From Leptonemataceae bacterium (GTDB lineage Bacteria; Spirochaetota; Leptospiria; Leptospirales; Leptonemataceae): 64,000 bases of DNA. The notes under the pieces were generated by a model. The model did no database searches and was not told the origin of the DNA. It saw nothing but the letters and a program-made list of their open reading frames with translations. Below are positions 17,380 to 48,121 of this stretch, piece after piece. The stretch lies in the NCBI GenBank assembly GCA_965227295.1, contig OZ245742.1, positions 5,792,001-5,856,000 of the forward strand. The letters run 5' to 3'. Each line of letters begins with the position of its first letter. The stretch's first letter is position 1. The translations under genes and the position numbers were made by a program.

Positions 17380-18648
17380 ATGGCCATCGACAAAAACAAA
17401 ACTCGCGAACTCTTAGACGGCGTCGACGAACTCTTTGACAGTATGATCGGCGGACTTTCGAAAGACGTCGCCGGCTTTCTGAAACGCACGGTGATGGGGC
17501 CGGCGCTCGACGAGATCCGCAAGTTAATAGAAGAAAGCCGGCCGCCGGTGCTGTTCCTGGCCGGGCGTTCCGGTCACGGCAAGTCGTCGTTGATCAACGC
17601 CCTGGCCGGTCGGGAGATCGCGGACGTCGGCGACATCAAACCGACGACGCCGGAGTCCACGCCGTATCTCATTCACTTTGAAGAACAGTACTCGGCCTGG
17701 CAGGTCGTCGACTCGCGCGGCATCTTCGAAACGACGCGGCCGGACGGCGCGCCGGCCGACGACGCCGTGTCCGTGTTGAAGGCGGACCTGCGCAAACATC
17801 GGCCGGACGTGTTGATGCACGTCATCAGCGCGCCGGAGTTGCGGAACCTGGCGCCGGACCTCGAAGTCTTGCAAAAGATTCGCGACGAGCTGCGGCACGA
17901 GGACGGCCTGGACCTGCCGGTGATCGTCGTCCTGAACAAAGTCGACACGCTGGGCAATCCGCGCGAATGGCCGCCGGAGTCGAACGCGAAAAAGGCCGCG
18001 CTGATTCAAGAGGCCGTGCAGTACATGAGCGGCGACGTGTTGCGTTTACCGGACGCGCAGAACATCGATCGTAACTTTGCCATTCGCGGTGTGTCCTCCG
18101 GCGACGCGAATCGGCCCGCGGTCATTCCGGTGTGTTCGTTGCCGGGCGACGGCTGGAACATCGAAAGCCTCGCCGACTTCATCGGCACGCGATTGCCGGA
18201 CGTCGCGCTCCTGGATTTTTACCAGGCGTTGCGGCGCAAGGAACAACTGCGGCGCATCTCTTCGTCGCTGATCAAACGGTTCTCGGTCATCGCCTCGGGC
18301 ATCGGCGCGTCACCGGCTCCGCTGTCGGACTTTATTGTTCTCACGCCCTTGCAAATTTTGATGGTCGCCATGATTGGCGGGCTTTCGTGTCGCCCCGTCT
18401 CCCGCGAGACGGCCTACGAGTATCTCTCGGCGATCGGTGTGAACCTGGCCGCGGCCGGCGGCGTGCGCTACGTCACGCGGCAGTTGTTGAAGTTCATTCC
18501 GTTTGGCGGCTGGGCGGCGGCCGGTTCGATTGCCGGGGCAAGCACCTACGGTCTCGGCAAGGCGGCGGAGACGTACTTCTTTGCCGGCGAGTTGAAGAAG
18601 CCGGAGGAGTTTCAAGCGGGGTGGAAGGTGGTGAAGGATGGGGCTTAG
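17380..18648 (+). CDS. Era-like P-loop GTPase with DUF697-like C-terminus
   Basis: G1 GRSGHGKSS, G3 DSRG, G4 NKVD; hydrophobic C-terminus IGASPAPLSDFIVLTPLQILMV. Confidence 0.85.
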   Translation: MAIDKNKTRELLDGVDELFDSMIGGLSKDVAGFLKRTVMGPALDEIRKLIEESRPPVLFLAGRSGHGKSSLINALAGREIADVGDIKPTTPESTPYLIHFEEQYSAWQVVDSRGIFETTRPDGAPADDAVSVLKADLRKHRPDVLMHVISAPELRNLAPDLEVLQKIRDELRHEDGLDLPVIVVLNKVDTLGNPREWPPESNAKKAALIQEAVQYMSGDVLRLPDAQNIDRNFAIRGVSSGDANRPAVIPVCSLPGDGWNIESLADFIGTRLPDVALLDFYQALRRKEQLRRISSSLIKRFSVIASGIGASPAPLSDFIVLTPLQILMVAMIGGLSCRPVSRETAYEYLSAIGVNLAAAGGVRYVTRQLLKFIPFGGWAAAGSIAGASTYGLGKAAETYFFAGELKKPEEFQAGWKVVKDGA

Positions 18649-18746
18649 GTTACTCGGATTAGATTTTAGTTGCGGACATTTTGCGACGTGGATCGTGGAC
18701 GAATCTTCAAGCATCAGAAAGACAAACGAGTGATCAAGTAAGATTG

Positions 18747-18880
18747 TTTTGGGCGTGCCCCTCCGCGCTACGCGCTCCGGGTCGCGCTTTCCAGGGCTCC
18801 GCGCTTCGCGCTTCGGTCCTCCGCCTTCGGCTCCGGACTCGCGGCTTCGCCGCGACCCTTCCAATCGCTCACGCGAAGAA
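18747..18880 (+). repeat. structured intergenic repeat family A, copy 1
   Basis: TTGGGCGTGCCCC...GGGTCGCGCTTTCCAGGGCTCCG...CCCTTCCAATCGCTCACGCGAAGAA with several short hairpins; recurs in the window. Confidence 0.9.
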
Positions 18881-19071
18881 CTCGTCGTTCGATCATGTGG
18901 CTCAGGTGATCATTCCGGACCTTTTTACCCTCACGCCTCCCCCTCGGCGTCCTGTGGCGAATCACAGGCGGATATTCATTTGTCCCGCCGGTTTCTGGAA
19001 TTTCGCCGGGTGGTCCGTTTTCCGCGCGGCCGTGGTCGATTTTCGGGGTGGCCCGCCCCGATATTTGGATC

Positions 19072-19269
19072 GTGAGCGAAAGCAACGATTCCCCGAAATC
19101 ACGCACGCGGTCCCGCTTTAAGGACGCCGGCAGCCCCCATGTCAACAACGACCCGAAAGTGGTGAACCTGGCGTACTATCGGATTAAGAAGTCCCTGCAA
19201 CAGGAAGGCTTCGATCTGGTGACCGATGCGGATGGGAAGTTGACGTTGGTGTTAAGAGTGACGAAGTAG
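19072..19269 (+). CDS. small hypothetical protein (~65 aa)
   Basis: GTG start; protein-like C-terminus VVNLAYYRIKKSLQQEGFDLVTDADGKLTLVLRV; convergent with the HEPN gene. Confidence 0.6.
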   Translation: MSESNDSPKSRTRSRFKDAGSPHVNNDPKVVNLAYYRIKKSLQQEGFDLVTDADGKLTLVLRVTK

Positions 19270-19272
19270 AAG

Positions 19273-19680
19273 TTAGAGTCTTGCGCGCACTTGCCGCACG
19301 AAATCTTCAAGGTCGCTGAGGCGATTCTCGGCTACGTCCCTGAGTATACTGATGTCCACGTCCGTGTAGCCGTGCACAAGGACGTTTCGAAATCCAATCA
19401 CCTTGCGCAAGTTCTGCGATGTCTCCTGCTTGATCCAATCGTTTCGCGCCAGCTTGTCAAACAGCTCCGCGTTCGTGCGCGGCTCCCCTAATTTCTCATC
19501 CGAAACGATATGCGATCCTATGTCCTGAACTGCCTGGATCGCGATCTGGAGCGTGTGCTCGACGAAACGCCGCTCCTTCAGATCCGTCGAAATCTTCTCG
19601 GGTCGCGCCAGTTCTCGCAAATCGCGGAGGCATGCCTCAATGAAAGCCAGTTTCTTTCGGATCAGATCTTCGTCTGTCAT
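19273..19680 (-). CDS. hepT: HEPN (DUF86) ribonuclease toxin, type VII TA
   Basis: RX4HXY motif GFRNVLVHGY; overlaps the upstream MNT gene. Confidence 0.9.
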   Translation of the reverse strand: MTDEDLIRKKLAFIEACLRDLRELARPEKISTDLKERRFVEHTLQIAIQAVQDIGSHIVSDEKLGEPRTNAELFDKLARNDWIKQETSQNLRKVIGFRNVLVHGYTDVDISILRDVAENRLSDLEDFVRQVRARL

Positions 19681-20072
19681 CGAGCGGCCTGCCGATATTC
19701 ATCCAGGATCGGCTTGAGATCCCAGTATTTGTTCCGGGCCTGCACCTCGAATGCAATTCGCCGCGATGGGTCCTGTTCCGTAATGAGAATCCCATCACGT
19801 AAGATACGATGCACGAGGTCCGCCGGAGCGTCGTTCATTACGATCAATTGAGCCGGACGTTCCAGAATTTCGGAAAGATCGGCCTCTAAATCGAACGGAC
19901 GAGCATCAAGAGTTTGAGGCGGCGTTTGTCTATAAAGCAAGCCGACATCTACGTCACTTTTCGCCGTTTGCGTACCGCGAGCGACACTGCCGAACAGGTA
20001 CACTGCCGCCAATCCCGGAACGTCCCGAAAAAATTCTCGCAGGCGATCCTGTATCTCGTCAGCCGGCATCAC
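19677..20072 (-). CDS. mntA: minimal nucleotidyltransferase antitoxin
   Basis: YLFGSVARGTQTAKSDVD (GSX10DXD); ATGA overlap with the HEPN gene. Confidence 0.9.
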   Translation of the reverse strand: MMPADEIQDRLREFFRDVPGLAAVYLFGSVARGTQTAKSDVDVGLLYRQTPPQTLDARPFDLEADLSEILERPAQLIVMNDAPADLVHRILRDGILITEQDPSRRIAFEVQARNKYWDLKPILDEYRQAAR

Positions 20073-35943: not shown

Positions 35944-37065
35944 TTAAACATCTCCCGCCCGCAACTTAAGGCTTTCCATAATCTTCCACCAGGCGCCATC
36001 CGCCCCGGGCACCTCCGGACCGCCCGGGCGAAATTCAATGTACAACCCGCGCCGGCCGCGGAGCACGTAGTACTCGTAAAAATAAAAGCGCCGGTCGCGA
36101 TCGCGCAGTTCACTCCGGAGCAGCCCGCAGAATCGGCCGTTCTCCGGGTCGCCGGCGCGACGATCAAAGCTGAGCCGGCCCTGGGCGTCCGCACGGGTAT
36201 CACAGAAATCCGCGTGCTGATCGCTTAACGTACGCTGAAATGCAAGTAAGCGTTTGCGCTGCGCCGTGAGCGTGCGACGGCGATCCCAGAGACGCACGTA
36301 GTCGGGCAACTCCGGATGGTACTGCCCGTGGTCCGCGCCGATCGTAACGATCCAGTCCGCATGTCCCAGATGCACCACGTCCGGATTGTCGCGTTCTTCC
36401 GGCGGGCGATGGTCCCCCGGCGAGGTCAGCGTGTTTTTTCGCACGTGCCCGCGCAAATGATGGTCCGCCGCAAACTTCCAGGCCCCGGGCAATTCCAGGC
36501 GAAAGCCGTGGCGATCACTCAACACGATCGTGCGGCCGCGCTCGTCGTCGAAGAAGGCATACGGATCCGAACGTAAATCAACGGCGGCGAAAGACGCATC
36601 GCGTTCGGCGAGATGATTCAGCCGCGCCGTAGCTTCCCGCGCGGCGCGCCGCACGGCCGCGTTCGCCCGCGGCAACGCCACGGTCATAGACCGCAACGCC
36701 TTCCAGATGCGCAGGGCCTCTTCTTTCAGACCGCGCCCGTACAACGCCTCCGCCTCGCTGTTGTACAACGGCGCCTCGCGACTGTCCGGCAGGACCGGCA
36801 ACCAGTTCGCATCGTACAAACCCGAGGGACCGAGCGGGTTAAACGCGATCTCACCGTGACGATCGATTTCGAATTTACGTTCACGCCGGTCTTCGATCGT
36901 CCAGCGATTGCGCGGGCTTTCGATGATTTCGCCGACCGCGCTGATGACTCCGCGCGCCCGCCGGGATTCCTGACCGGTCCAGTTCTCCCGGAGCAGCGGA
37001 TCCGCACCGGCGGACGTCGCGGCGGCCAGCACCGCAAAGGTTAAGATGCGCGTAAGGATTTTCAT
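35944..37065 (-). CDS. hypothetical exported protein
   Basis: Sec signal MKILTRILTFAVLAAATSAGA; 373 aa. Confidence 0.7.
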   Translation of the reverse strand: MKILTRILTFAVLAAATSAGADPLLRENWTGQESRRARGVISAVGEIIESPRNRWTIEDRRERKFEIDRHGEIAFNPLGPSGLYDANWLPVLPDSREAPLYNSEAEALYGRGLKEEALRIWKALRSMTVALPRANAAVRRAAREATARLNHLAERDASFAAVDLRSDPYAFFDDERGRTIVLSDRHGFRLELPGAWKFAADHHLRGHVRKNTLTSPGDHRPPEERDNPDVVHLGHADWIVTIGADHGQYHPELPDYVRLWDRRRTLTAQRKRLLAFQRTLSDQHADFCDTRADAQGRLSFDRRAGDPENGRFCGLLRSELRDRDRRFYFYEYYVLRGRRGLYIEFRPGGPEVPGADGAWWKIMESLKLRAGDV

Positions 37066-37145: not shown

Positions 37146-37865
37146 ATGGCATTGGAACAGGAGAAAGGCGTTTTCGAAAACATCAAGAACCTGGTGAAAC
37201 CGTTCTTCGACATGATGGTGGACATCAAGAAAGAAGGCCTGGAACACGTGCCCGGGGACGGCGCCGCCATCATCGTCGGCAATCATCGCTCGGACATGGA
37301 TCCGTTCATCGTCGCGTCCACCATCCCGCGGTACATTTCCTGGATCGCCGCCGAGTATACCGAGCGCATTCCCATCTTCAAAAATCTGGTCCGCGAAACC
37401 GGCGTCATCCCCATGCAGCTCGACGGTAACGTTACCGTATCTTCCATTAAGCGGCTCATGTCCGTGTTGCGCAACGGCGATCTATTGGGCATCTTTCCGG
37501 AAGGCCACGACTACATGGTGCGCAACGATTTCTCGGCGCCCATGGTGGACTTCCACAGCGGCTTCGGCACGTTCGCCTACCGCGCGAAGGCGCCCATCAT
37601 TCCGTTCGTCATCGTGCCCATCGAAGAGAACATCGAAACCATTCCCCTGCATCCACGGTTGCGGCAAATGATCGGCCTGCCCGACGAGGTCTGCCACATC
37701 CCGCATCGAGTGCAGTACCGCTCCGTGAAGATTGTATTCGCGCCGCCCGTACATGCGAAGGATTTTCGCGGCGTGCCCGAAAAAGAGGCCGTGCCGGAAA
37801 TTGTGACGAAGGTGCGCACGACCATGCACGAGTTGCAGGTTCGCAACGGCATGATCGCGAACTGA
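37146..37865 (+). CDS. lysophospholipid (PlsC-like) acyltransferase
   Basis: NHRSDMD (HX4D) and GIFPEG motifs. Confidence 0.9.
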   Translation: MALEQEKGVFENIKNLVKPFFDMMVDIKKEGLEHVPGDGAAIIVGNHRSDMDPFIVASTIPRYISWIAAEYTERIPIFKNLVRETGVIPMQLDGNVTVSSIKRLMSVLRNGDLLGIFPEGHDYMVRNDFSAPMVDFHSGFGTFAYRAKAPIIPFVIVPIEENIETIPLHPRLRQMIGLPDEVCHIPHRVQYRSVKIVFAPPVHAKDFRGVPEKEAVPEIVTKVRTTMHELQVRNGMIAN

Positions 37866-37872
37866 ACAGTTT

Positions 37873-39333
37873 TTAACTGCTGGAAGCAGCCGCGTCGTTC
37901 GCGGAATCGATGCGCAGCCGAAAAATTTCAATGATCCGATCGAACTCGACGACGCTCGCGTCGAGTTCCGACGACGAACCCGCGCCGAATGCACAGGCGT
38001 CGCGCAACTTTGCCAGGTTCGCGGCCGTCGATTCGAACATCCAGGCCGCCCCTTCGAAGAGATACAACTTGCGTAAGGCCTTGCGCGCGGTCTTCCAGTC
38101 ACCGGCGAGGGTCGCGGTTTCGAGAGCGGTGGCCACGGTCCAGTAGTCCCGCGCGTCGATGCCGCCGCGACGGGCCACGGCGAAGGCCGCGGCATGGGCG
38201 TACGTCCGCGCTTCGTCCTGCGCCTCTTCGAACTCCCAGGGATCCTGGCGGCGCAGAAAACGGTGGGCACGCACAAACATCAACGTGGCCGCGTTTACGC
38301 CGGGATAGTAATCCGACGGATCCAGATGAAAACCCTCGCGATACGCCGCGACCGCCTCGTCCAGATGCAACGAGGCTTCAAAGTCGGAACCGTTCGCCAG
38401 GGCTTCGTCGAAGTTATCTTTATGAATGCGGCCGAGCAATCCTAAAGTTTCGGAAGTATGAAGTTTATCCGCGATGAGTTGGTCCAGGACGGCCTTCGCC
38501 CGGCGGCGATCACCGTCACCCTTGCGGCGATTCAACGCGAAGGCAAACAGTTCGCGCACCGCCGGAGAAGCAGCGAGCGGACCGTCCGGCAACCGTTCCA
38601 CCGACGCAATCAACGCGTCGTAATCCTTGACGTCGCGATAGGCGCGCAAGAGATCCAGAAAAAGCTCCGTTTGATGTTCTCCGGGCCCGGCCTCGCCGAA
38701 GTGTTCGGCCGCAAACCTGGCCACGGCCTCCCGGGCGTTCGCGGCGCTGACGCTTTCGCGCAATGCCTCGCGCACGTGAGCGGCCGCGTTCAGCCGTTCG
38801 CGGAAACTCGCGGCGGTGCGCGGGTCCATCGGCACGCCGGGATAGTCCGGAATCAACCCGAACAACGGACTGTCCTGGAGATTCCGGTCCTCCAGGTATT
38901 CTTTGATCTTGCGCGTCAAGTTACTGCGCAACGATTCGGCCTCGGCGTCTTCGAGATAGCCGGCGTTGAGCTTGTACGGCAGACCGCGGAGCATGTTGAT
39001 GTCAAAGGGCGGCGGCCCCGAGGGCGCGAAGATCATGAGCGTGGAACGCGGTCGGGCGGCGTGACGTACGCCGAGTTCGTAGTATACGTTCGCGTTGGGT
39101 ATGGTGACCTCGGCGATGACGAAGTCGGCGCAGAGCAGACGCTCGAACATGGGCGTATGAATGATGCCGCCGCCCTTTTCCTCGTCGGCGCGGATCACGT
39201 CCAGTCCGGCATCCAGGCACGCCGGACGGATCCCCGCCTGGTAAATGCGATCGAAATCGATCTCGTGAATTCCGGCCGCGTCCATCTTCTTGCCGAAGGG
39301 CATTACGATAAAAGCTAAAGGATTATTCGACAT
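37873..39333 (-). CDS. NDT/deoxyribohydrolase-like domain + TPR-S (DUF4071, MAP3K TRAF-binding-like) protein
   Basis: FIVMPFGKK, RADEE, NANVYYELGVRHA; ETLGLLGRIHKD, YYPGVNAATL, DYW..AT..E. Confidence 0.85.
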   Translation of the reverse strand: MSNNPLAFIVMPFGKKMDAAGIHEIDFDRIYQAGIRPACLDAGLDVIRADEEKGGGIIHTPMFERLLCADFVIAEVTIPNANVYYELGVRHAARPRSTLMIFAPSGPPPFDINMLRGLPYKLNAGYLEDAEAESLRSNLTRKIKEYLEDRNLQDSPLFGLIPDYPGVPMDPRTAASFRERLNAAAHVREALRESVSAANAREAVARFAAEHFGEAGPGEHQTELFLDLLRAYRDVKDYDALIASVERLPDGPLAASPAVRELFAFALNRRKGDGDRRRAKAVLDQLIADKLHTSETLGLLGRIHKDNFDEALANGSDFEASLHLDEAVAAYREGFHLDPSDYYPGVNAATLMFVRAHRFLRRQDPWEFEEAQDEARTYAHAAAFAVARRGGIDARDYWTVATALETATLAGDWKTARKALRKLYLFEGAAWMFESTAANLAKLRDACAFGAGSSSELDASVVEFDRIIEIFRLRIDSANDAAASSS

Positions 39334-39342
39334 AAGTTAGAA

Positions 39343-39981
39343 TCAGCCCTGGGGGATTGCGCTTTTGTCGGAGCCGTCGTCCGTGGTCGCGGGACCGGGG
39401 CCGGTTTCGCTTTGCCCCGCGGCGGGCCTGGCGTCCGTCCCTCCGGCGACGGGCGCGTCTTCGGCTTTGTCGCTCTTCTTTGAAAGTACTTTGCGACTCG
39501 CGTTCCGGCCCCAGGCCGCCACGGTCTTTGCGATCAACCCTTCCGTGCGTTCGACGAAGAGCGGAAACGGATCCGCGCCTTCGGTGCTATCTTCGTCGTA
39601 GACTTCCGCCCGGGCCAGATAAAGAAACTTCTCGCGGGTCAGGGACTCACTGATGAGCCGGTAATCCACCCAGTTCTCGTGAAACTTAAAGAGCGATAAC
39701 ATGCCCGCAACGATTGTTAATAGGACACCGATGCCGCTCACTACCAGGGGTAGTACGAGGACGCCGAACGCCTCCGGCAAGACGATGGCGATGCCCGACA
39801 GGAACGGGATGCACGCCGCCAGGATGATGTTGAGTACCGTCAGCCAATGGTACCGGGTCTTGTTTTTCCCGCTGTTTTTGGAATGCCAGGCGATCTGTCC
39901 ATCCACGCGGTCCCGGATGTAGCCTGCCGGATCGAGATCGTCCGCCGTAAACGGCGCCGTTGAATCGGTGTAAGGGTGCAT
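39343..39981 (-). CDS. SLATT (DUF4231) two-TM protein
   Basis: YIRDRVDGQIAWH, two TM helices, FHENWVDYR..SESL.REKFLY, FVERTE. Confidence 0.88.
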   Translation of the reverse strand: MHPYTDSTAPFTADDLDPAGYIRDRVDGQIAWHSKNSGKNKTRYHWLTVLNIILAACIPFLSGIAIVLPEAFGVLVLPLVVSGIGVLLTIVAGMLSLFKFHENWVDYRLISESLTREKFLYLARAEVYDEDSTEGADPFPLFVERTEGLIAKTVAAWGRNASRKVLSKKSDKAEDAPVAGGTDARPAAGQSETGPGPATTDDGSDKSAIPQG

Positions 39982-40201
39982 GTTACGATCCTACTCCGAT
40001 CATCGAGATTCCGCGAGCGAGATTCCAGACCGCAACGTTGCGTTGCGCGAACTTTTCAGTCATTGCGAAAGATCCTTACCATTACCACGGCCGGCCGGAA
40101 AATCTCTGAAAAGCAAGCGCCCCTCGCAACGCTCCGCTTAAGATTCCCAAAAATTCAGCTTGCGGCATGTCTTAATATCGAGGAAATTCACGGGCCCCGA
40201 A

Positions 40202-41722
40202 ATGAAAGCGCCACAGAACGACATCTTCATCAGCTACGCTCACATCGACAACGCCTCGTTTTCGGAAGATGAGGAAGGCTGGGTCACGCAGTTGCACCGC
40301 ATCCTGGAATTGCGTCTGGCGCAATTGATGGGCGAGCAGGCCCGGGTATGGCGCGATCAAAAACTAAAGGGCAATGACATATTCGACGAGACCCTGGAGG
40401 AACGTTTTCGTAACACGAAGCTTCTGATCTCCATCGTAAGCCCGCGCTACGTTAAGTCCGATTGGTGCATTCGAGAATTGAACGGTTTCAGCGAGGTGGC
40501 CCCGCCCGCCGGGGATCGTTCCCGGGTGTTTAAGGTCGTGAAGACGCCCGTGGATCTTGACCGCATGCCGGAGCAGTTCCAGCGTACGCTGGGCTACGAG
40601 TTCTACAAAAAACATCCCGAAACCGGACGCCCCCTGGAGCTCAGCCTGGACCAACCGGAGACCAGGAAGGATTTCCTGGCCCGTCTGGACGATCTGGCGT
40701 ATGAGATCGTCGAATTACTGCAGGAACTCCGCAACGGAACGCCGGCCGATCCTCATCCGGAAGGCCGTACAATCTATCTGGCAGAAACAAGTTTTGATGC
40801 AGAGGATGAACGCGACGCGTTGAAACGCGATCTCCTGGAAAAAGGCCACCGCGTCCTGCCGAACCTGGAGTTGCCCGACAACGCTCCGGGAATCGACCGG
40901 GCGGTGAACGAAGCACTGGCGGAATCCGATCTTTCGATTCATATCGTGGGCGGCTACTACGGCGTGGTGCCCGCCGCCACGGAATACTCCGTCGTCCATT
41001 TGCAGGATGACATCGCCGCGGATCATGCCGAACAATCGCCGCAGTTCATGCGTTTGATCTGGCTCCCCGCGAATCGTCCGGCCCGGGAAGAACGCCAGCA
41101 AAAGTTCCTGCACGATCTGCATAATGACCCGCGCGCCGCGGGACGAACCGATATCGTGCACGGTACATTAGAGGAATTTAAGGAAGTCGTCGAAGAAACG
41201 CTGAAGAACCTGCGCAGTCGGGAAGCCCGTGCCGAAGAACGCGGGACCACCGCGAAGGAAGGCGCGGCGTCCGCGAACGAAAACGCGGGCAGCGTCTACC
41301 TGATCTACTGCCGCGAAGATGAGGAGGAGGCCTATTCCCTGGCGGAGTACCTGTTTGAAGTACACGGCCTGAACGTTATGACGCCCCTGCTGGACGGCGC
41401 GGGCGACGAAAGCGAACTGCGCGAAGATCATCGGGAGAATCTCGTTTCCTGTGACGCCGTAATAATTTTCTACGGCTCCGCTGAAGAGACCTGGCTGCGG
41501 GAAAAACTCCGCGAACTCAAAAAGATTCCCGGCTACGGTCGCGACCGTCCGTTTTCCGGCCGCGCGGTATTTCTGGCACCGCCGGCCACGCCGCATAAAA
41601 CCAAACGCCTGCTGGTCCAGGGCGTGGAAATCATTCGCAGTACCGACGAGATCCGTCCGGAGACCCTGGAAGATTTCGCGATTCGTATCAAAGAAAAATC
41701 CGGCGCGGAGGCGTCGGCATGA
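40202..41722 (+). CDS. TIR-domain protein with two further TIR/DUF4062-like Rossmannoid domains
   Basis: DIFISYAHID..WV, SPRYVKSDWCIREL; second domain TIYLAETS..DLSIHIVG; third domain SVYLIYCRED..CDAVIIFYG. Confidence 0.85.
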   Translation: MKAPQNDIFISYAHIDNASFSEDEEGWVTQLHRILELRLAQLMGEQARVWRDQKLKGNDIFDETLEERFRNTKLLISIVSPRYVKSDWCIRELNGFSEVAPPAGDRSRVFKVVKTPVDLDRMPEQFQRTLGYEFYKKHPETGRPLELSLDQPETRKDFLARLDDLAYEIVELLQELRNGTPADPHPEGRTIYLAETSFDAEDERDALKRDLLEKGHRVLPNLELPDNAPGIDRAVNEALAESDLSIHIVGGYYGVVPAATEYSVVHLQDDIAADHAEQSPQFMRLIWLPANRPAREERQQKFLHDLHNDPRAAGRTDIVHGTLEEFKEVVEETLKNLRSREARAEERGTTAKEGAASANENAGSVYLIYCREDEEEAYSLAEYLFEVHGLNVMTPLLDGAGDESELREDHRENLVSCDAVIIFYGSAEETWLREKLRELKKIPGYGRDRPFSGRAVFLAPPATPHKTKRLLVQGVEIIRSTDEIRPETLEDFAIRIKEKSGAEASA

Positions 41723-43662
41723 ACGGGGATATTCGCAATCCCTTCCCCGGCCTGCGGCCGTTCCAGCCGCACGAAAATCATCTCTTCTTCGGTCGCGAAG
41801 ATCAGATCGACGAACTGATTTCGATTCTCCGTCGTCGGCACTTCCTGGCCGTCGTGGGTACCTCGGGCAGCGGCAAGTCTTCTCTGGTGCGCGCGGGTTT
41901 GATTCCGGCTTTGCAGAGCGGTTACATGCACGGCGAAAGCGCGAACTGGAAGATCATCCTGCTGCGTCCCGGCGACGGACCGCTGCAAAAACTCGCCCGG
42001 GGCATTAACATGGCCTTCGGCGAACGCGACGAATACTACCCCATGCGCGCTTCATTGATCGAAACCACATTGCGGCGCAGCGATCTGGGGCTGCGCGAAG
42101 CATTGCGCCAGGCACGGCCGCCGGAGAACACGAACGTGCTCATTCTCGTCGACCAATTCGAGGAGCTGTTTCGGTTTCATGAAGCGGCCAGGCATCGCAA
42201 CGCCGGCTCGGACGAGGCCTCGGCTTTCGTACGTTTGCTGTTAAAAAGCAGTGTCGAGAACCAGGATGGTTCCGTATACGTTTGCCTGACCATGCGCTCG
42301 GACTTCCTGGGCGACTGTTCGTTGTTCTCCGGACTGCCGGAGGCTCTCAACTCCGCTCAATATTTGATTCCTCGGTTGAGTCGTAATCAAAAACGCCGGG
42401 CCATCGCCGGCCCCATGGCCGTCAGCGGGGCGCGCATGAGCGCCCGCCTGTTGCGCCGACTCTTAAACGATATCGGCGACGACCAGGACCAGTTGCCGAT
42501 CTTACAACACGCGTTGATGCGCATCTTCGATCGCTGGCGCTCGACCCTTTTGTACGGGAGACGCAAAGGGGACGGCCCCGTTCCCTTCGAACAAATGCGC
42601 GAGATTGACCTGGAAGATTACGAGGCGGTGGGCGGATTTCAGGAAGCCCTTTCGCGTCACGCGGAGGAGTTGCTGGGAGTCATCGCCAGACGTCACAGCG
42701 ATGCCGGCATTGCGGTCGCCGAGGCCTTGTTCCGTCGGCTCACGGAAATGGGACCGGACAATCGCGGCGTGCGCCGCCCGGCGCGCTTCGAAGAGATCCC
42801 CGCCGTCGCCCACGCGCCGCGGGAGGTCGTCGAGGACATCGTCAACATCTACCGCCACCCCTCCTGTTCATTCATTATGCCGCCGCCCGGAACGCCCTTG
42901 AGCGACAACGTGGTAATTGATATTTCCCATGAAAGTTTGATGCGGGTGTGGAGTCGGTTAACGACCTGGGTCGCAGCCGAGGGGCGTTCGGCGCGCATCT
43001 ATCGACGCCTGGCCGAGACGGCCGGCATGCACGCCCGGGGGGAGGCGGCGCTCTACACGGGCGAGGACCTGAACGTTGCCCTGGAATGGCGGGAAAACGA
43101 ACGACCCGGTCCGGTGTGGGCCGAACGTTACGGCGGAGACTTCGAATACACCATGCAGTTCCTGGAGACGAGCCGGCGCAGTCGCGACCAGGAACAGGCG
43201 GAACGCAAGGCCAGGGAACTCGCCCTCCAGGAAGCCCGGGCCCTGGGCGAACAGAGTCTCGTTCTGCGCAACATCATCTCTACGATTCCGCACTATATCT
43301 TCTGGAAAAACCAGGACCTGATCTACCAGGGTTGCAATGAAAGTTTTGCACGCGCCGCCGGCCTGGAGGACGCTGCTCAAATCGTCGGCCGTTCCGATCT
43401 GGAGTTGTGGCCCGCGGAAGAGGCCGAGAAATATCGTGCGGACGATCGGCGCGTAATGGAGCTGGGCGAGCCGGAGTATCTCGAAGAGGCCCAGACCCAG
43501 GCGAACGGCGAGACCATCTGGGTGGCCACGAACAAGGTTCCTCTGCGTAACTCTCAGGACCAGGTGATCGGAATCCTCGGTACCTTTATGGATATTACGC
43601 ACATCAAACGCCTGGAGCTCCAGCTGGAACGTATGAGCGGTAAAACGGTGGAGGAGACATGA
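41719..43662 (+). CDS. nSTAND1 NTPase with C-terminal PAS/PAC domain
   Basis: NPFPGLRPF..FFGRE, GTSGSGKSSLVRAG, LVDQFEELF, TMRSDF, LPILQHAL, DISHESL; then IPHYIFWKN..GCN..F..KVPLRN..IGILG..DIT. Confidence 0.9.
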   Translation: MNGDIRNPFPGLRPFQPHENHLFFGREDQIDELISILRRRHFLAVVGTSGSGKSSLVRAGLIPALQSGYMHGESANWKIILLRPGDGPLQKLARGINMAFGERDEYYPMRASLIETTLRRSDLGLREALRQARPPENTNVLILVDQFEELFRFHEAARHRNAGSDEASAFVRLLLKSSVENQDGSVYVCLTMRSDFLGDCSLFSGLPEALNSAQYLIPRLSRNQKRRAIAGPMAVSGARMSARLLRRLLNDIGDDQDQLPILQHALMRIFDRWRSTLLYGRRKGDGPVPFEQMREIDLEDYEAVGGFQEALSRHAEELLGVIARRHSDAGIAVAEALFRRLTEMGPDNRGVRRPARFEEIPAVAHAPREVVEDIVNIYRHPSCSFIMPPPGTPLSDNVVIDISHESLMRVWSRLTTWVAAEGRSARIYRRLAETAGMHARGEAALYTGEDLNVALEWRENERPGPVWAERYGGDFEYTMQFLETSRRSRDQEQAERKARELALQEARALGEQSLVLRNIISTIPHYIFWKNQDLIYQGCNESFARAAGLEDAAQIVGRSDLELWPAEEAEKYRADDRRVMELGEPEYLEEAQTQANGETIWVATNKVPLRNSQDQVIGILGTFMDITHIKRLELQLERMSGKTVEET

Positions 43663-44000
43663 ATCAAAAGATCTTTATTTTAACAAGCGCCGCCGCCTAC
43701 GAACAAGCACGCGCGCTCGGACAGTACGCAATTCCCGATCCCACCGAGGGATTCATTCACGCCTCCCCGGCGGATCAGTTGAACCGGGTGGCCAACAAGT
43801 ACTACACGGGGGTTGAAGACCTGCTGCTGCTCATCGTGGACCCGCAGCGCGTCCACGCGGAAATCAAATGGGAACCGGCCACCGGGGGACTCTATCCGCA
43901 CATCTACGGCGATCTGAACCTCGACGCCGTAACCAAAATCGTACCAATTCAAAAAGCAGCCGACGGAACGATCGTCATTCAGCCGGAGACTCTGGAATAA
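43659..44000 (+). CDS. DUF952 family protein
   Basis: EGFIHAS..Q...VANKYY, LLLL.VD, IKWE..YPHIYG.LN..AV. Confidence 0.9.
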   Translation: MNQKIFILTSAAAYEQARALGQYAIPDPTEGFIHASPADQLNRVANKYYTGVEDLLLLIVDPQRVHAEIKWEPATGGLYPHIYGDLNLDAVTKIVPIQKAADGTIVIQPETLE

Positions 44001-44025
44001 GCCGGAACGCGCCGCGGGGGAAGCC

Positions 44026-44319
44026 ATGGGATTCAAAGTTGAGTTTAATAACATCTTACGAACGGATGTTTTCAGATCGAAGGACTTGAACCAGGGAGAG
44101 CGCTACGGCTTCAGCAAGGCCGGGGACCGTATCTTTATGGACACGCTTCCCATCTGGCTGAGCCGTAGCGACTGGACCGCGATCGCGGAAATCCGCATTG
44201 TTACGCAGACCAGACAGGGCCGACGCGTACACGGCGAATTCGAAGTACTGCACGTCTACAACACGGCGGAGCGACGCGCCATTACAAGAATGTTTCGCCG
44301 CATGTTCGGCCGGGCGTAG
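44026..44319 (+). CDS. DUF2584-like small protein
   Basis: MGFKVEFNNIL..K.G.RIF..PI.L...W.A.A.I.I pattern resembles DUF2584 as recalled. Confidence 0.6.
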   Translation: MGFKVEFNNILRTDVFRSKDLNQGERYGFSKAGDRIFMDTLPIWLSRSDWTAIAEIRIVTQTRQGRRVHGEFEVLHVYNTAERRAITRMFRRMFGRA

Positions 44320-44322
44320 TCG

Positions 44323-46215
44323 TCAATCCAGCTCACGTCCCTTCGCCAGGTTATCGACGATCCAGGTACCCACGCGCAGCGCGTTGGCCATCACACTGAC
44401 CATGGGATTTACTCCCAGGCCCGTGGGCATAAAACTGGAATCCACGATGAACACGTTCCGGACCTCGTGCATGCGGCAATTGCGGTCCACCACCGACGTC
44501 AGCGGATCGTCTCCCATGCGACAGGTTCCCATCTGGTGATCGCCGATCAACGTGAGATCCGCGCTGTCGGGGACACGCAGTTCAATGCCGAGATCCTGAT
44601 AACGCGAGAAGATATCCTCCAGCCTGGAACGCAACAGCCGAAAGATCAGCCGCTCGTGTTCGCCGAAGCGCCGGGTAATGCGCGCCACCGGCAGCCCGAA
44701 TTCGTCGACATAGGTCGGATCCAGGGTCACGCGGTTGTCCGCCATGGGCAGATCGTCTCCCGTGGCCCGGAGTTCCAGGCTGCGGGCGTAACGATCCATC
44801 TCGCGCAGGAGATCCAGGCCGATCTTCGCGCCGGTACCGCTTACGAGTTCGTAAGCGTGAAAGAGCGGATCTTTGCGTTGCGTGCCCGTTAAGATTCCGC
44901 TCTTCCACCAGCGTTCGTCTTCATCTTTCAGAAAGTAGTGATCGTAAATAGCCGCCGATCCGGTGTTACCGATTTGTGAATGCAACATGCCCTGGTATTT
45001 TTCCGGCAGCACGCAACGAGCGGTCATACCGAAGAGATGAAACATGGCATAACGACCGATGTTGCCGTAACGATTGCCCAGGCCTTCCGGCGGACCTGAT
45101 AACAGCAACAAACGAGAAGTTTGTACCGCACCGCACGAAAGTATGACGAAACGCGCTCGTTCGATGCGGATCACGGGATTGTCCGGGTCCGTGAGATCGA
45201 GATACTTCACTCCGGTGGCCCGCCGCAGTCGATCGTCGTACATCACTTCGATGACTTTCGCCCCCGTTCGTACCTCGGCGAACTCCGGCAAATCGTTCAA
45301 CTCCCGAATCGTCGTGGAAAAGGTCCCGCTCTTGGGCGGCCGACTTCCCCAGCATACGTACTCGCCGCAGTAGCCGCAGAGGTTACAGGGATCCCGCCGA
45401 CGCTCCGACCACAACTCTTCCGCCGGACGCCGCCAGAAACTACCGCTTCGATCCCGCCACGACGCCTGCGCACGCGCAATCTGCTCGCGCGTATCGTACT
45501 CCGGTCCCCCGGGATGTACCAGGGCCGTCGGAAGACACACGGGATTGAGTCCGGCATGCCTCGCGCCCTGGTGAACGAAACGACCCACCGGGGTCAGAGG
45601 ATAGTCGGGGGCGGGATAGGGAAAGTCTGCGGCCCAGGCGCCGTATTCCGCAAAGTTCGGATTAATGGAACTCAGCGCTTTATACCATTCGCTTTCCACC
45701 AGCGCGCGGTTCATCGCGTCGCGATCACCGCAAACCGCCAGCAAAACCTCCGCAATGTTGAAGTACGGTTCGAATTCCGAGTACGAGACCGGCCAGTCGG
45801 GGATCGAATAGCCCCAACGTTCCAGTTCCTCCAGTTGCCCCGTACGTTGAAAGTGATCCCGCAAACGCAGGTCCACGGGCAACGGTCGCACGGCCCATCC
45901 GCCCCAGAGCATGGAGCCGCCTCCGAGCGCCGTGCCGGTATAACCCCCGGAAAACGGACGCGCGTCGACCTTTTCGGAAGGCCGAAACGTACAGTAATCT
46001 CCCCTCAGTCGACGTTTAGGGTCGGGACGTTCCAGACGAAATCGAAACTCGTCGTGCATGGTCGGATCGAAACTCCGGTCCGATTCGTGGATGGGGCGCG
46101 TCCAGTCCGCGCCCTGTTCTAATAGCAACGTTTTGTATCCGGCCCTGGCGAGCATCCAGGCGATCGTTCCGCCTCCGCCACCGCTGCCTACGACGATAAA
46201 ATCCAGATCAGCCAT
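44323..46215 (-). CDS. GMC-family FAD oxidoreductase large subunit (gluconate 2-dehydrogenase-like)
   Basis: IVVGSGGGGG FAD motif, LGGGS..WG, CNLCGYCGEYVC Fe-S-type motif, HQMGTCRMG, NP..S..ANALR. Confidence 0.9.
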   Translation of the reverse strand: MADLDFIVVGSGGGGGTIAWMLARAGYKTLLLEQGADWTRPIHESDRSFDPTMHDEFRFRLERPDPKRRLRGDYCTFRPSEKVDARPFSGGYTGTALGGGSMLWGGWAVRPLPVDLRLRDHFQRTGQLEELERWGYSIPDWPVSYSEFEPYFNIAEVLLAVCGDRDAMNRALVESEWYKALSSINPNFAEYGAWAADFPYPAPDYPLTPVGRFVHQGARHAGLNPVCLPTALVHPGGPEYDTREQIARAQASWRDRSGSFWRRPAEELWSERRRDPCNLCGYCGEYVCWGSRPPKSGTFSTTIRELNDLPEFAEVRTGAKVIEVMYDDRLRRATGVKYLDLTDPDNPVIRIERARFVILSCGAVQTSRLLLLSGPPEGLGNRYGNIGRYAMFHLFGMTARCVLPEKYQGMLHSQIGNTGSAAIYDHYFLKDEDERWWKSGILTGTQRKDPLFHAYELVSGTGAKIGLDLLREMDRYARSLELRATGDDLPMADNRVTLDPTYVDEFGLPVARITRRFGEHERLIFRLLRSRLEDIFSRYQDLGIELRVPDSADLTLIGDHQMGTCRMGDDPLTSVVDRNCRMHEVRNVFIVDSSFMPTGLGVNPMVSVMANALRVGTWIVDNLAKGRELD

Positions 46216-46942
46216 GATTCAAATCCTCCTCGATCGTTTTCATGAATCGATCGCATACCTCAGCCGCGAACTCCGGGGTGTAAGTATTTCCCGGGCGACG
46301 GTGTTGGCCTAACTCAATCAGCAGAGCTTCTCGAAAGGGCTGCTGCGCAGGGTTACGTCCACCCAGGGCGGAGTACAAAAGATCCGCACAATAGCGTTTC
46401 AGAAATTCCTTCGAAGTAAAATGCGTGCCCGGCCAATTCGGATTGCGATCTTCGAATAACGAAGCGGCGTAGCACTTCCAGTCGTCCGCGCTTTCCGGGG
46501 CATTCAATTCCGTGCAGTACATGAAGTCCGGCAGCGTCTTCTCGTAAAAGTCGATGCGCGAGATTTGTCGCGGACCGCTCTTCAGTACGTTGTAAGCACG
46601 TTCCGGATCGAAGGCGGGTCGATTGTACAATCCCCGGTCCGCGCGCCAGGCCCGGGCGGCTTCACTTCCGTCGGGATGACGCACCAACGGATCGTAACGA
46701 TGCTCGCGCCAGAGATACAACAAATCCTTACCGCCGGACGTTTCCCGCATTAGACCCTTGAAAAATAGTAACGCGCCGGTATGCGCAATGCGCAGAGTTT
46801 CCCCCGACTCCCGCCAGGGTGGTGAAGGTTCCGGCACCAGGAACTTTTGCTCGATCCAGTCCTCCAGTGGAAGGAGCGCGTCGGCAAGGGCCTCCAGGTT
46901 CGTCATCATATCATGATTCAGCAATTTCCCGATATAAGCCAT
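46208..46942 (-). CDS. hypothetical protein, probable small partner subunit of the GMC enzyme
   Basis: Overlaps the GMC start by 8 nt; LEALADALLP and YSALGGRN resemble gluconate-DH subunit 3 motifs. Confidence 0.55.
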   Translation of the reverse strand: MAYIGKLLNHDMMTNLEALADALLPLEDWIEQKFLVPEPSPPWRESGETLRIAHTGALLFFKGLMRETSGGKDLLYLWREHRYDPLVRHPDGSEAARAWRADRGLYNRPAFDPERAYNVLKSGPRQISRIDFYEKTLPDFMYCTELNAPESADDWKCYAASLFEDRNPNWPGTHFTSKEFLKRYCADLLYSALGGRNPAQQPFREALLIELGQHRRPGNTYTPEFAAEVCDRFMKTIEEDLNHG

Positions 46943-47119
46943 GGCCCGCTCTATGCCGAGCGCTATATTTACGCAATCTAAACTTAATAAAAGTTACAGT
47001 TACCGATTGATTTACGATCGATGCAGCATATGCAAGAAAATCGAATATTTTGCGCCCACATCGAAGGCGTACTAAAAGGAGACATGACAACCGCCGCACC
47101 GCATAGTAAGGCAATGAGC

Positions 47120-48121
47120 ATGAAAGCAATCATCATCGAAAAACGCGGCGGGCCCGAGGTTCTCCAGATCCAGGAAGTGCCGGACCCGGTACTGGTACCC
47201 GGTCACGTAATCATCAAGGTCCTGGCGTCGGGACTGAATCCCATCGATGCAAAAGTCCGGGCCCTGGACCTGCCGTTCGCGCCGAAGACGCCGGCCATTC
47301 CACATTGCGATGCCGCCGGCGTGATAAGCGCCGTAGCTGAAGATGTGCGTCACTTAAGAATCGGAGACGAGGTATACTGCTGCGCCGGCGGCATCGCGGG
47401 TACGCCGGGGGGCGCGCTCGCGGAATACATGCTCGCGGACGCGAACCTGGTCGCGCGAAAACCGAAGCGACTGAGTTTTCAGGAAGCGGCCGCCGTACCC
47501 CTGGTGGGACTCACGGCCTGGGAGGCCCTCGTCTGGAAGGCGGGGATTCGCCCCGGGGACAACGTATTGATTCACGGGGGTACCGGCGGCGTCGGCCACT
47601 TCGCCGTGCAACTCGCGCGCGCCGCGGGGGCCCGGGTTACCGCAACGGTATCGTCCGCAAAAAAAGCACGCGTGGCGAAGCAGCTCGGCGCAACGACCGC
47701 GGTAAATCGTACGAAGATGCCGCCGGAACAGTATGTCCGCGAACTTACGGACGGCCGGGGCTTCGACGTCGTCTTCGATACGGCCGGCGGAGACAATCTT
47801 GAGCGTTGCATCGAAGCGACACGACCGAACGGAACCATCGTAAGCGTCGCGGCCCGGGAGGAACATAACCTTCTTCCAATGTATGTTAAGGGCCTGAGTC
47901 TGATGAACGTACTCATGCTGGTTCCCATGCTGACCGGTGTCGGTCGGGACCGTCACGGCGCGATCCTGGGAAAGCTCGCGGCATTGATCGACGCCGGACA
48001 CCTGAAGCCGCTCTTACATAAGAAGACATTCACGTTCGCCACGGCGGCGAAGGCCCACGCCCTGCTGGAAAGCGGACGCCATACCGGCAAGATCGTACTG
48101 CAAGGCTTTCATAAGAGTTAG
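47120..48121 (+). CDS. MDR-family quinone oxidoreductase-like protein
   Basis: GGPEVL, GLNPID, TAWEAL, HGGTGGVG, HTGKIVL. Confidence 0.9.
   Translation: MKAIIIEKRGGPEVLQIQEVPDPVLVPGHVIIKVLASGLNPIDAKVRALDLPFAPKTPAIPHCDAAGVISAVAEDVRHLRIGDEVYCCAGGIAGTPGGALAEYMLADANLVARKPKRLSFQEAAAVPLVGLTAWEALVWKAGIRPGDNVLIHGGTGGVGHFAVQLARAAGARVTATVSSAKKARVAKQLGATTAVNRTKMPPEQYVRELTDGRGFDVVFDTAGGDNLERCIEATRPNGTIVSVAAREEHNLLPMYVKGLSLMNVLMLVPMLTGVGRDRHGAILGKLAALIDAGHLKPLLHKKTFTFATAAKAHALLESGRHTGKIVLQGFHKS

Follow-up and report, generated by a model that had tools for sequence, protein, structure and literature searches.

The locus between positions 37873 and 46942 of a 64,000-nucleotide stretch of the Leptonemataceae bacterium genome (contig OZ245742.1, positions 5,792,001 to 5,856,000; hereafter the window) raises the question of whether its two divergent arms of tightly packed genes work as a single nicotinamide adenine dinucleotide (NAD)-signalling defence system, and which of the genes around them belong to it. 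The right arm encodes a TIR protein and a STAND NTPase; the left arm encodes a SLATT membrane protein and a TPR-S protein. The original prediction had taken the genes of the two arms, beside a GMC oxidoreductase pair, to be a candidate undescribed conflict system. Analysis of the locus and its relatives revealed the TIR gene, TIR3, and the nSTAND1 gene to be a widespread gene pair that forms a unit, and both nSTAND1 and SLATT genes to co-occur with TIR3 more often than expected by chance. With about as much doubt as belief, we read the locus as a Thoeris-like NAD-signalling defence system in which a STAND-gated signal generator serves two effectors. The features on which this reading turns are listed here, with the source of each description in brackets (ORF, open reading frame; aa, amino acids; AF2, AlphaFold2):

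37873..39333, minus strand: candidate ThsI-like effector, 486 aa (Pfam, AF2 model, VIA-align)
39343..39981, minus strand: SLATT (DUF4231-type) two-transmembrane candidate effector, ThsH-like, 212 aa, first gene of the left arm (Pfam, NCBIfam)
39982..40201, no strand: divergent intergenic region of 220 bp, common to both arms, with their presumed promoters (sequence read)
40202..41722 (ORF from 40160), plus strand: TIR3, 506 aa, three TIR/flavodoxin-like domains (Pfam, AF2 model, VIA-align)
41719..43662, plus strand: nSTAND1 NTPase with coiled-coil linker and C-terminal PAS domain, 647 aa (Pfam, NCBIfam)

The eight ORFs spanning 37873–46942 were all found where they had been predicted, and the 220-bp divergent region, both ATGA couplings of the right arm and the 3-nt gap before the GMC oxidoreductase gene were confirmed in the sequence. 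Reading of the junctions placed the end of the SLATT gene 9 nt from the start of the ThsI-like gene, and the ATGA overlap between TIR3 and nSTAND1-PAS at 41719–41722. The TIR3 ORF is open from 40160; the ATG at 40202 is most likely its start codon because homologues are ~497–510 aa long and align from residue ~5, and with this start the divergent gap measures 220 bp (39982–40201). A sigma-70 consensus scan found no site within this gap, and its promoters are therefore presumed only; promoter and terminator consensus scans of 37600–47200 gave counts at or below shuffle expectation. As to the domain labels that had been assigned, profiles matched TPR-S, SLATT, TIR, nSTAND1, PAS, DUF952 and GMC, whereas the nucleoside deoxyribosyltransferase (NDT) and DUF2584 labels had no Pfam match. 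The motifs WCIREL, YYELG and GTSGSGKS were all present in the translations.

The TIR3 and nSTAND1 gene pair

TIR3 matched the Pfam profiles TIR_2 (61.2 bits) and DUF4062 (28.3 bits); a third match, again to TIR_2, was weak (E = 0.002). Its AF2 model had a predicted local distance difference test score (pLDDT) of 86.2 and was compared with solved structures using VIA-align. Domain 1 (residues 1–178) aligned with the TIR structure 4w8h (Z 13.4), the SARM1 TIR 9hq0 (Z 12.0) and ThsB 6lhy (Z 10.6). Domain 2 (~177–352), the DUF4062 part, aligned with RCL 2khz (Z 11.1), which has an RCL/NDT-type fold, and the TIR-like domain 3 (~360–505) aligned with the RRS1/RPS4 TIR 4c6t (Z 12.6). Glu92, within WCIRE, was invariant in 37 TIR3 homologues, and domain 1 was the only one of the three to have an invariant acidic residue of the catalytic type. 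Assignment of TIR3 as FxsC of the FXSXX-COOH system was rejected, the NCBIfam model NF040588 scoring 51.8 bits against a cut-off of 130.

Full-length TIR3 relatives of ~500 aa were found at ~40% identity, with 976 matches at E <= 1e-3 among the candidates scored. An earlier scan of genome contigs with the single TIR3 protein as the query returned no relative; a TIR3 alignment then succeeded as the query, and its scan of species-representative genomes gave at least 534 relatives from 600 pattern-matched stretches. The neighbourhood sample comprised the 80 TIR3 loci that were kept, with flanks of up to 10 kb and a total of 1.35 Mb. Neighbours were counted with a crude longest-ORF gene caller, and one of the 80 loci (L020) was dropped as its core gene was not called. 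An nSTAND1 gene was present in 78 of the 80 loci: it directly followed TIR3 on the same strand in 72 loci and followed a split TIR3 in two, and in four it was upstream on the same strand, ~1–1.2 kb away, with a possible ~350-aa ORF in between in two of these. No nSTAND1 gene was found in the remaining two loci, and a contig end truncates one of them. The pair was common in records from Acidobacteriota, Bacteroidota, Verrucomicrobiota and Cyanobacteria.

The 647-aa partner matched nSTAND1 (PF20703) with 297.9 bits against a cut-off of 27.1; the clade owes its name to Kaur et al. 2021, eLife (PMC8195603). A Walker A motif (GTSGSGKS) and a Walker B-like motif (LILVDQFEE) were identified, and GTSGSGKS and DQFEE were invariant in 26 aligned homologues. 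A complex of nSTAND1 residues 1–480 with the whole of TIR3 was modelled, giving ipSAE interface scores of 0.71, 0.69 and 0.66 (median 0.69), whereas the best of three control pairs scored 0.00. Of 157 solved complexes, 116 scored at least 0.69, as did 2 of 215 mismatched pairs; these counts are rough since custom alignments were used. The runs shared at least 96% of their contacts, the pLDDT of the partner was at least 79, and the predicted interface set TIR3 residues 307–446, in domain 3, against NTPase residues 18–77 and 221–254. The model supports a predicted binding of TIR3 to nSTAND1 with domain 3 as the docking domain.

The PAS domain of the nSTAND1 protein (~residues 515–630; PAS_4 65.3 bits and the TIGR00229 sensory box) is an unusual feature of this locus. 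Most nSTAND1 relatives bear WD40 or TPR repeats instead. The PAS form was seen in 5 of 119 other nSTAND1 homologues listed, which were also the closest among those listed (43–48% identity), and in one of the 78 TIR3-nSTAND1 loci. L074 was the closest nSTAND1-PAS homologue among the fetched loci, with 51% identity over residues 7–642, and in 251 genomes from the class to which L074's genome belongs, PAS-type nSTAND1 made up one of 19 strong matches, that one being L074's own. Closer to the window, 40 related genomes were searched and yielded no full-length relative of nSTAND1-PAS; its NTPase domain was matched in one of them only (G008, 33–34% identity), and the other matches were to the PAS part alone.

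Other genes recurred beside the pair in the 80 loci. A TonB-dependent receptor gene (Plug plus beta-barrel) directly followed nSTAND1 on the same strand in 26 (e.g. L021 and L039:14585-17263). A protein of ~570–650 aa was encoded directly before TIR3 in 16, mostly from Bacteroidota (L039:8024-9979 and L025:8159-9871 among them), and it carried N-terminal hydrophobic helices and TrkA_N, with RyR as well in L025. Six to eight of these 16 loci also had an AAA ATPase gene upstream and an MFS-like gene downstream. Membership of the TonB and TrkA_N clusters was set by BLASTP; Pfam was run on two representatives per cluster. Because none of the 16 loci has SLATT, the TrkA_N(/RyR) protein may be an alternative signal-responsive membrane effector. 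Some TIR3 loci were surrounded by ParE, PIN and AbiH-like genes.

The left arm and its possible link to the pair

The 212-aa protein matched DUF4231 (71.9 bits) and SLATT_1 (30.3 bits) in Pfam and SLATT_1 in NCBIfam (106.5 bits against a cut-off of 41), and its hydrophobic stretch covers residues 45–101. SLATT genes of the same subfamily were found in 13 of the 80 TIR3 loci; in 11 of them the gene was part of the TIR3-nSTAND1 cluster and mostly shared its strand. This rate, 13 of 80 loci in 1.35 Mb, compares with one DUF4231 match in the 5.94 Mb of the window's own genome, which is the window's SLATT gene, and with zero in 14 control genomes. TIR3 was the only TIR found in the 11 SLATT-bearing clusters, no TIR family being detected in the 61 flanking ORFs scanned; these flanks were mostly housekeeping genes. 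One locus, L072, repeats the divergent layout of the window, with SLOG and SLATT on one side and TIR3-nSTAND1 on the other. In the window, the catalytic-type TIR gene is 220 bp from the SLATT gene and transcribed divergently from it; no TIR is encoded in the left arm itself, and 228 kb separate the locus from the next TIR_2 gene of the genome. The part of the original prediction that called this a conflict locus of TIR/NAD-type signalling, with SLATT as the membrane effector beside a STAND NTPase, is supported.

Two further arrangements of related domains were observed. Elsewhere in the genome (G000:C1:5603455-5607105; L195:6455-10105), a gene for a TIR-UvrD-type helicase of 1065 aa comes after a 146-aa TIR gene; the two adjoin a 7TMR-DISM adenylate/guanylate cyclase gene and look like a separate TIR-based two-gene module. 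At L078, a 757-aa protein combining RyR, TPR-S and a class III nucleotide cyclase (17554-19827) is encoded 2.5 kb from a TIR3-nSTAND1 pair, which is also accompanied by a divergent gene for a 658-aa SLATT-containing protein.

The C-terminal part of the 486-aa protein matched MAP3K_TRAF_bd (PF13281, 148 bits) and TPR-S (PF20308, 89.4 bits), the latter a type of TPR domain that was reportedly predicted by Burroughs and Aravind. In the AF2 model (pLDDT 85.2), residues 183–481 aligned with the central regulatory region of ASK1 (5ulm_B; Z 23.0, root-mean-square deviation 3.6 Å over 276 residues; VIA-align), and both domains of the model aligned with 8qgy (Foldseek E = 1e-10). This likeness to the N-terminal regulatory region of ASK1 (MAP3K5) is a fold relationship only; unlike ASK1, the 486-aa protein has no kinase domain, and its N-terminal domain keeps an NDT-like Glu motif. 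The motif is NVYYELG, which we take to be NDT-like, and its Glu (E86) was invariant in 39 aligned homologues. The N-terminus (residues 1–135) had no Pfam match even at E <= 5, and in VIA-align residues 2–150 resembled the NDT 7o62 (Z 12.6), the MilB cytidine monophosphate (CMP) hydrolase 4ohr (Z 12.1) and the SfSTING TIR 7un8 (Z 13.1). Of the label of NDT-like hydrolase with TPR-S that had been given to this protein, the TPR-S part stands, whereas the NDT part rests on a fold similarity that is tied with TIR.

The ThsI-like family is large, with 1,554 matches at E <= 1e-3 among the candidates scored. It was sampled in 80 metagenome loci, many on short contigs; 69 had callable immediate neighbours, of which 106 neighbour ORFs were scanned, and 11 were dropped (L128, L131, L137, L144, L150, L164, L165, L170, L171, L176 and L184). 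A small ThsB_TIR gene (PF08937) immediately adjoined the ThsI-like gene in 7 of the 69 loci and another TIR-family neighbour was present in eight more, bringing those with any TIR-family neighbour to 15; SLATT and SLOG (LSDAT) neighbours were each found in six. The neighbours included TIRs fused to sensor modules, namely TIR-WD40 (L112), TIR-AAA_16 STAND (L123), TIR-nSTAND1-FGE (L141) and TIR-TPR (L181). The TIR-nSTAND1-FGE gene of L141 sits directly upstream of the ThsI-like gene and is a fused counterpart of the separate TIR3 and nSTAND1 genes of the window; this metagenome locus (L141:3023-7908) encodes a 924-aa TIR-nSTAND1-FGE-sulfatase protein, then the ThsI-like protein and then a small protein with a weak TIR match. 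The related multi-effector clusters L113:2125-11186 and L117:859-9898 encode Endonuclease_NS, TPR-S-trypsin, a Tle1-like phospholipase, SLATT, ThsI-like, SLOG (LSDAT) and patatin proteins, and the order of SLATT followed by ThsI-like is the same in the window.

The closest published counterparts of the left arm are described in a preprint of 2025 by Yirmiya et al. of the Sorek laboratory (bioRxiv 10.64898/2025.12.03.692087). There, type VII Thoeris consists of a TIR and the SLATT effector ThsH, and type VIII of a TIR and the effector ThsI, which has a CMP-hydrolase domain and TPR; both effectors respond to canonical cyclic ADP-ribose (cADPR) and both defend against phage, and rare Thoeris operons carry the two together. 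The same text states that TIRs in Avs proteins were discarded in the survey, and no mention of a separate STAND partner was found there. That SLATT would act as a nucleotide-responsive pore next to TIR-type effectors had been predicted before (PMC7159879). By architecture, the left arm matches the ThsH (SLATT) and ThsI (CMP-hydrolase-like plus TPR) effector types, an assignment set by domain architecture and genomic context.

Like Thoeris VII/VIII, the window has SLATT and candidate NDT/CMP-hydrolase-like-TPR-S genes side by side near a catalytic-type TIR gene, and like type VIII, homologues of its 486-aa protein adjoin ThsB_TIR genes. Unlike in those systems, the TIR is not a small ThsB but a 506-aa three-domain protein obligately paired with nSTAND1, the pair has a PAS sensor and the TIR gene is divergent from the effector genes. 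With Avs/AVAST and the nSTAND1 clade, the window shares an nSTAND1 core with Walker motifs, TIR as the enzymatic output and a place in an accessory island. A single-chain Avs/AVAST protein was rejected, given that the NTPase begins at residue 8 of 647, a distinct gene encodes the TIR and the C-terminal domain is a PAS domain. Unlike in Avs/AVAST, moreover, the TIR gene is translationally coupled and its product has two TIR-like domains in addition, PAS takes the place of WD40/TPR repeats as the C-terminal sensor, and dedicated signal-responsive effectors are probably encoded next door, which suggests signalling rather than NAD depletion alone. Of the claim that the system was undescribed, the part concerning the effectors falls away, as their types match ThsH and ThsI of the preprint, but their pairing with TIR3-nSTAND1(-PAS) was not found in print. 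Neither TIR3 with nSTAND1 in the role of a Thoeris-type signal generator nor a PAS version of it was found in print. What would be new here is the proposed STAND-gated, PAS-sensing, dual-effector Thoeris-like arrangement; the effectors themselves are of known kinds.

The accessory island and its other genes

The flanking acyltransferase gene (37146–37865) and Lnb-type gene (from 48226) were matched in two same-genus genomes with 68–78% DNA identity. The matched flank points were 372 bp apart in G002 and 1,227 bp apart in G001, compared to ~10.6–10.7 kb in the window. The block of ~10.3 kb is an accessory island, absent between the same flanks in both same-genus genomes searched. In addition to the genes listed above, it contains:

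43659..44000, plus strand: DUF952 protein (CC0527-like, ART/Tpt1-type fold; ART, ADP-ribosyltransferase), 113 aa (Pfam, PDB match)
44026..44319, plus strand: 97-aa protein, possibly DUF2584-like, last gene of the right arm (ESM-Atlas lead)
44323..46215, minus strand: GMC oxidoreductase, 630 aa, with GMC_oxred_C and GMC_oxred_N (Pfam)
46208..46942, minus strand: 244-aa partner overlapping the GMC gene (no family match)
47021..48121: Zn-dependent alcohol dehydrogenase gene (same island as the GMC pair)

The nSTAND1-PAS and DUF952 genes overlap by ATGA at 43659–43662 (sequence read) and the 97-aa gene starts 25 nt after the DUF952 gene. Its stop codon (44317–44319) and that of the convergent GMC gene (44323–44325) are separated by the 3-nt gap. 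The DUF952 protein scored 88.4 bits in Pfam and matched PDB entry 2o0q (CC0527) with E = 3.5e-13 over residues 5–104, the His of GFIHAS and that of YPHIYG being aligned; DUF952 is credited with an ART/Tpt1-type NAD-using fold and an H-H-h motif in PMC8120803. It was found in 8 of 41 relatives and in 14 of 301 genomes of the phylum, the window's own genome included. DUF952 was rejected as a recurrent partner: it occurred in 0 of 80 TIR3 loci, and the 15 other DUF952 loci had no TIR3, nSTAND1 or 97-aa-gene neighbour within about 1.5 kb. The window's DUF952 as a query also gave no match in the genomes behind L074, L034, L078 and L072. Unlike CC0527/DUF952 elsewhere (0/80 TIR3 loci, 0/15 DUF952 loci), that of the window is translationally coupled to a STAND NTPase, and it could be a local accessory that handles NAD or ADP-ribose.

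No match to the 97-aa protein was obtained in Pfam (even at E <= 5), NCBIfam or PADLOC; its nearest ESM-Atlas clusters carry DUF2584 (PF10763; score 0.94, 207 shared features), and the gene was present in 0 of 80 TIR3 loci. The 244-aa GMC partner had no family match in Pfam (even at E <= 5) or NCBIfam and was likewise in 0 of 80. The GMC pair was rejected as a partner, a GMC gene being seen in one of the 80 loci, ~8 kb off and as a weak match (E = 8e-7). DUF952, the DUF2584-like gene and the GMC pair, which the original prediction had counted as members of the system, are thus in 0, 0 and 1 of 80 TIR3 loci, and their membership is not supported. On the Thoeris-like reading, the 97-aa gene and that for DUF952 would be local additions transcribed with the right arm, and the GMC pair and the Zn-dependent alcohol dehydrogenase gene unrelated cargo of the island.

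Just outside the island, a 373-aa ORF on the minus strand (35944–37065), between the TetR and acyltransferase genes, had no Pfam match even at E <= 5. The spacing around it is kept in the same-genus genomes, yet the DNA there is without match.

One circuit or two systems

STAND NTPases switch by nucleotide exchange and oligomerisation. In a Thoeris-like system, nSTAND1-PAS would detect a trigger via its PAS domain and switch in this way. As the modelling predicts, it would hold TIR3 through the third, non-catalytic TIR-like domain, and the assembly would gather the N-terminal catalytic TIR domains (Glu92). The active TIR would then convert NAD+ to a cyclic ADP-ribose-type molecule, which would be canonical cADPR if the effectors behave like the described ThsH/ThsI counterparts. 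By extension from the ThsH/ThsI preprint, the SLATT protein would read the signal and form membrane-breaching oligomers, and TPR-S would read it and turn on the NDT/CMP-hydrolase-like nucleotide-degrading head of the second effector. The infected cell would arrest growth or die.

That the two arms are one circuit is plausible from the presence of SLATT in 13 of 80 TIR3 loci and from the layout of L072, but several observations weigh against it. Most TIR3-nSTAND1 loci (67 of 80) are without SLATT and a TPR-S protein is encoded in 2 of 80 only, and because of this the pair can exist by itself, perhaps as an effector that simply depletes NAD. Among the 80 ThsI-like metagenome loci there was at most one TIR3-family neighbour, a weak one at a contig end (L139), and the ORFs scanned in the ThsI-like plus SLATT loci L113, L117, L127 and L130 gave no TIR match in Pfam, which means that there are effector cassettes with no TIR next to them. 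The arms of the window are divergent and not a single operon. The N-terminal fold of the ThsI-like protein ties between NDT/CMP hydrolase and TIR (TIR folds at Z 11–13), the TonB-dependent receptor neighbours of 26 of the 80 loci are not a classic defence context, and the likeness to ThsH, ThsI and a cADPR-making TIR was drawn from architecture. PADLOC (PADLOC-DB 2.0.0, 2023 models), run on the region as had been proposed, gave weak single-domain matches and no named system.

Many of these points would also fit two independent systems that adjoin in one defence island, an NAD+-depleting TIR3-nSTAND1-PAS abortive-infection module and a separate SLATT/ThsI-like cassette that takes its cue from a TIR elsewhere or from some other signal. 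We consider this possible but doubtful. The 67 loci without SLATT and the 78 without TPR-S, the near absence of TIR3 from ThsI-like loci, the SLATT-ThsI cassettes with no adjacent TIR detected and the divergent transcription all agree with it, as do the small TIR and TIR-UvrD-type helicase genes 228 kb off and the clearly unrelated cargo of the island. It leaves aside, however, that SLATT is enriched beside TIR3-nSTAND1, where no other TIR was found, that L072 has the same divergent layout, and that ThsI-like genes adjoin TIR-STAND fusions, TIR-nSTAND1 included. Moreover, ThsH and ThsI as described in the preprint need a TIR-made signal, and no TIR other than TIR3 lies within 228 kb.

An NAD-signalling circuit with a physiological rather than antiviral role, in which a small-molecule, redox or light cue sensed by PAS leads to dormancy or cell death or to envelope or transport responses, appears improbable. 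The island is accessory and absent from both same-genus genomes searched, both effector types are antiphage in the preprint, some TIR3 loci lie amid ParE, PIN and AbiH-like genes, and the PAS domain yielded no cofactor-binding motif, without further testing. On the other side are the PAS domain itself, in place of the WD40/TPR repeats usual in the family, the TonB-dependent receptor after the pair in 26 of 80 loci and the TrkA_N(/RyR) membrane protein before it in 16, and the fact that PADLOC names no known system. The full eight-gene, redox-wired NAD-processing circuit, with DUF952, the DUF2584-like gene and the GMC pair as functional members, is very improbable. It draws on the ATGA coupling of DUF952 to nSTAND1-PAS, the 25-nt and 3-nt distances that follow, the NAD-using ART/Tpt1-type fold of DUF952 (the PDB match, and PMC8120803) and the location of all genes within the same island, but its additional members are missing from TIR3 loci (DUF952, the 97-aa gene and the 244-aa gene each in 0/80; GMC in 1/80, 8 kb off, E = 8e-7). 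The 15 other DUF952 loci are without TIR3, nSTAND1 or 97-aa-gene neighbours, the genome of L074, the closest fetched nSTAND1-PAS homologue, has no DUF952 match to the window query, and the GMC pair is convergent and therefore not co-transcribed.

Described Thoeris systems have small TIR proteins that sense infection themselves, and STAND/NLR-like defence proteins (NLR, nucleotide-binding leucine-rich repeat) are mostly seen as self-contained sensor-effector fusions. The Thoeris-like reading of the window, if true, would join two branches of bacterial immunity, as an NLR-like NTPase would gate a separate TIR with dedicated effectors. It would also mirror the plant order of a TNL receptor (TIR-type NLR), a TIR-made nucleotide and a downstream executioner. 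We tentatively suggest, as a further step, that the locus is a split bacterial counterpart of plant TNL logic, in which a PAS-cued nSTAND1 would assemble a trans-encoded triple-TIR cADPR-type synthase that fires a SLATT pore and a ThsI-like enzyme, with TIR3-nSTAND1 as a general signal cassette. The cue would then be a small molecule or redox change perceived through PAS, rather than a phage protein perceived through repeats; SLATT, SLOG-SLATT, 2TM-TrkA_N/RyR and TPR-S proteins would be interchangeable effectors, and DUF952 could be an NAD/ADP-ribose-handling modulator. The locus raises the question of which cue a PAS domain senses in an immune STAND, and the Thoeris-like reading, if true, would provide a working hypothesis for the large uncharacterised TIR3 and nSTAND1 gene pair.

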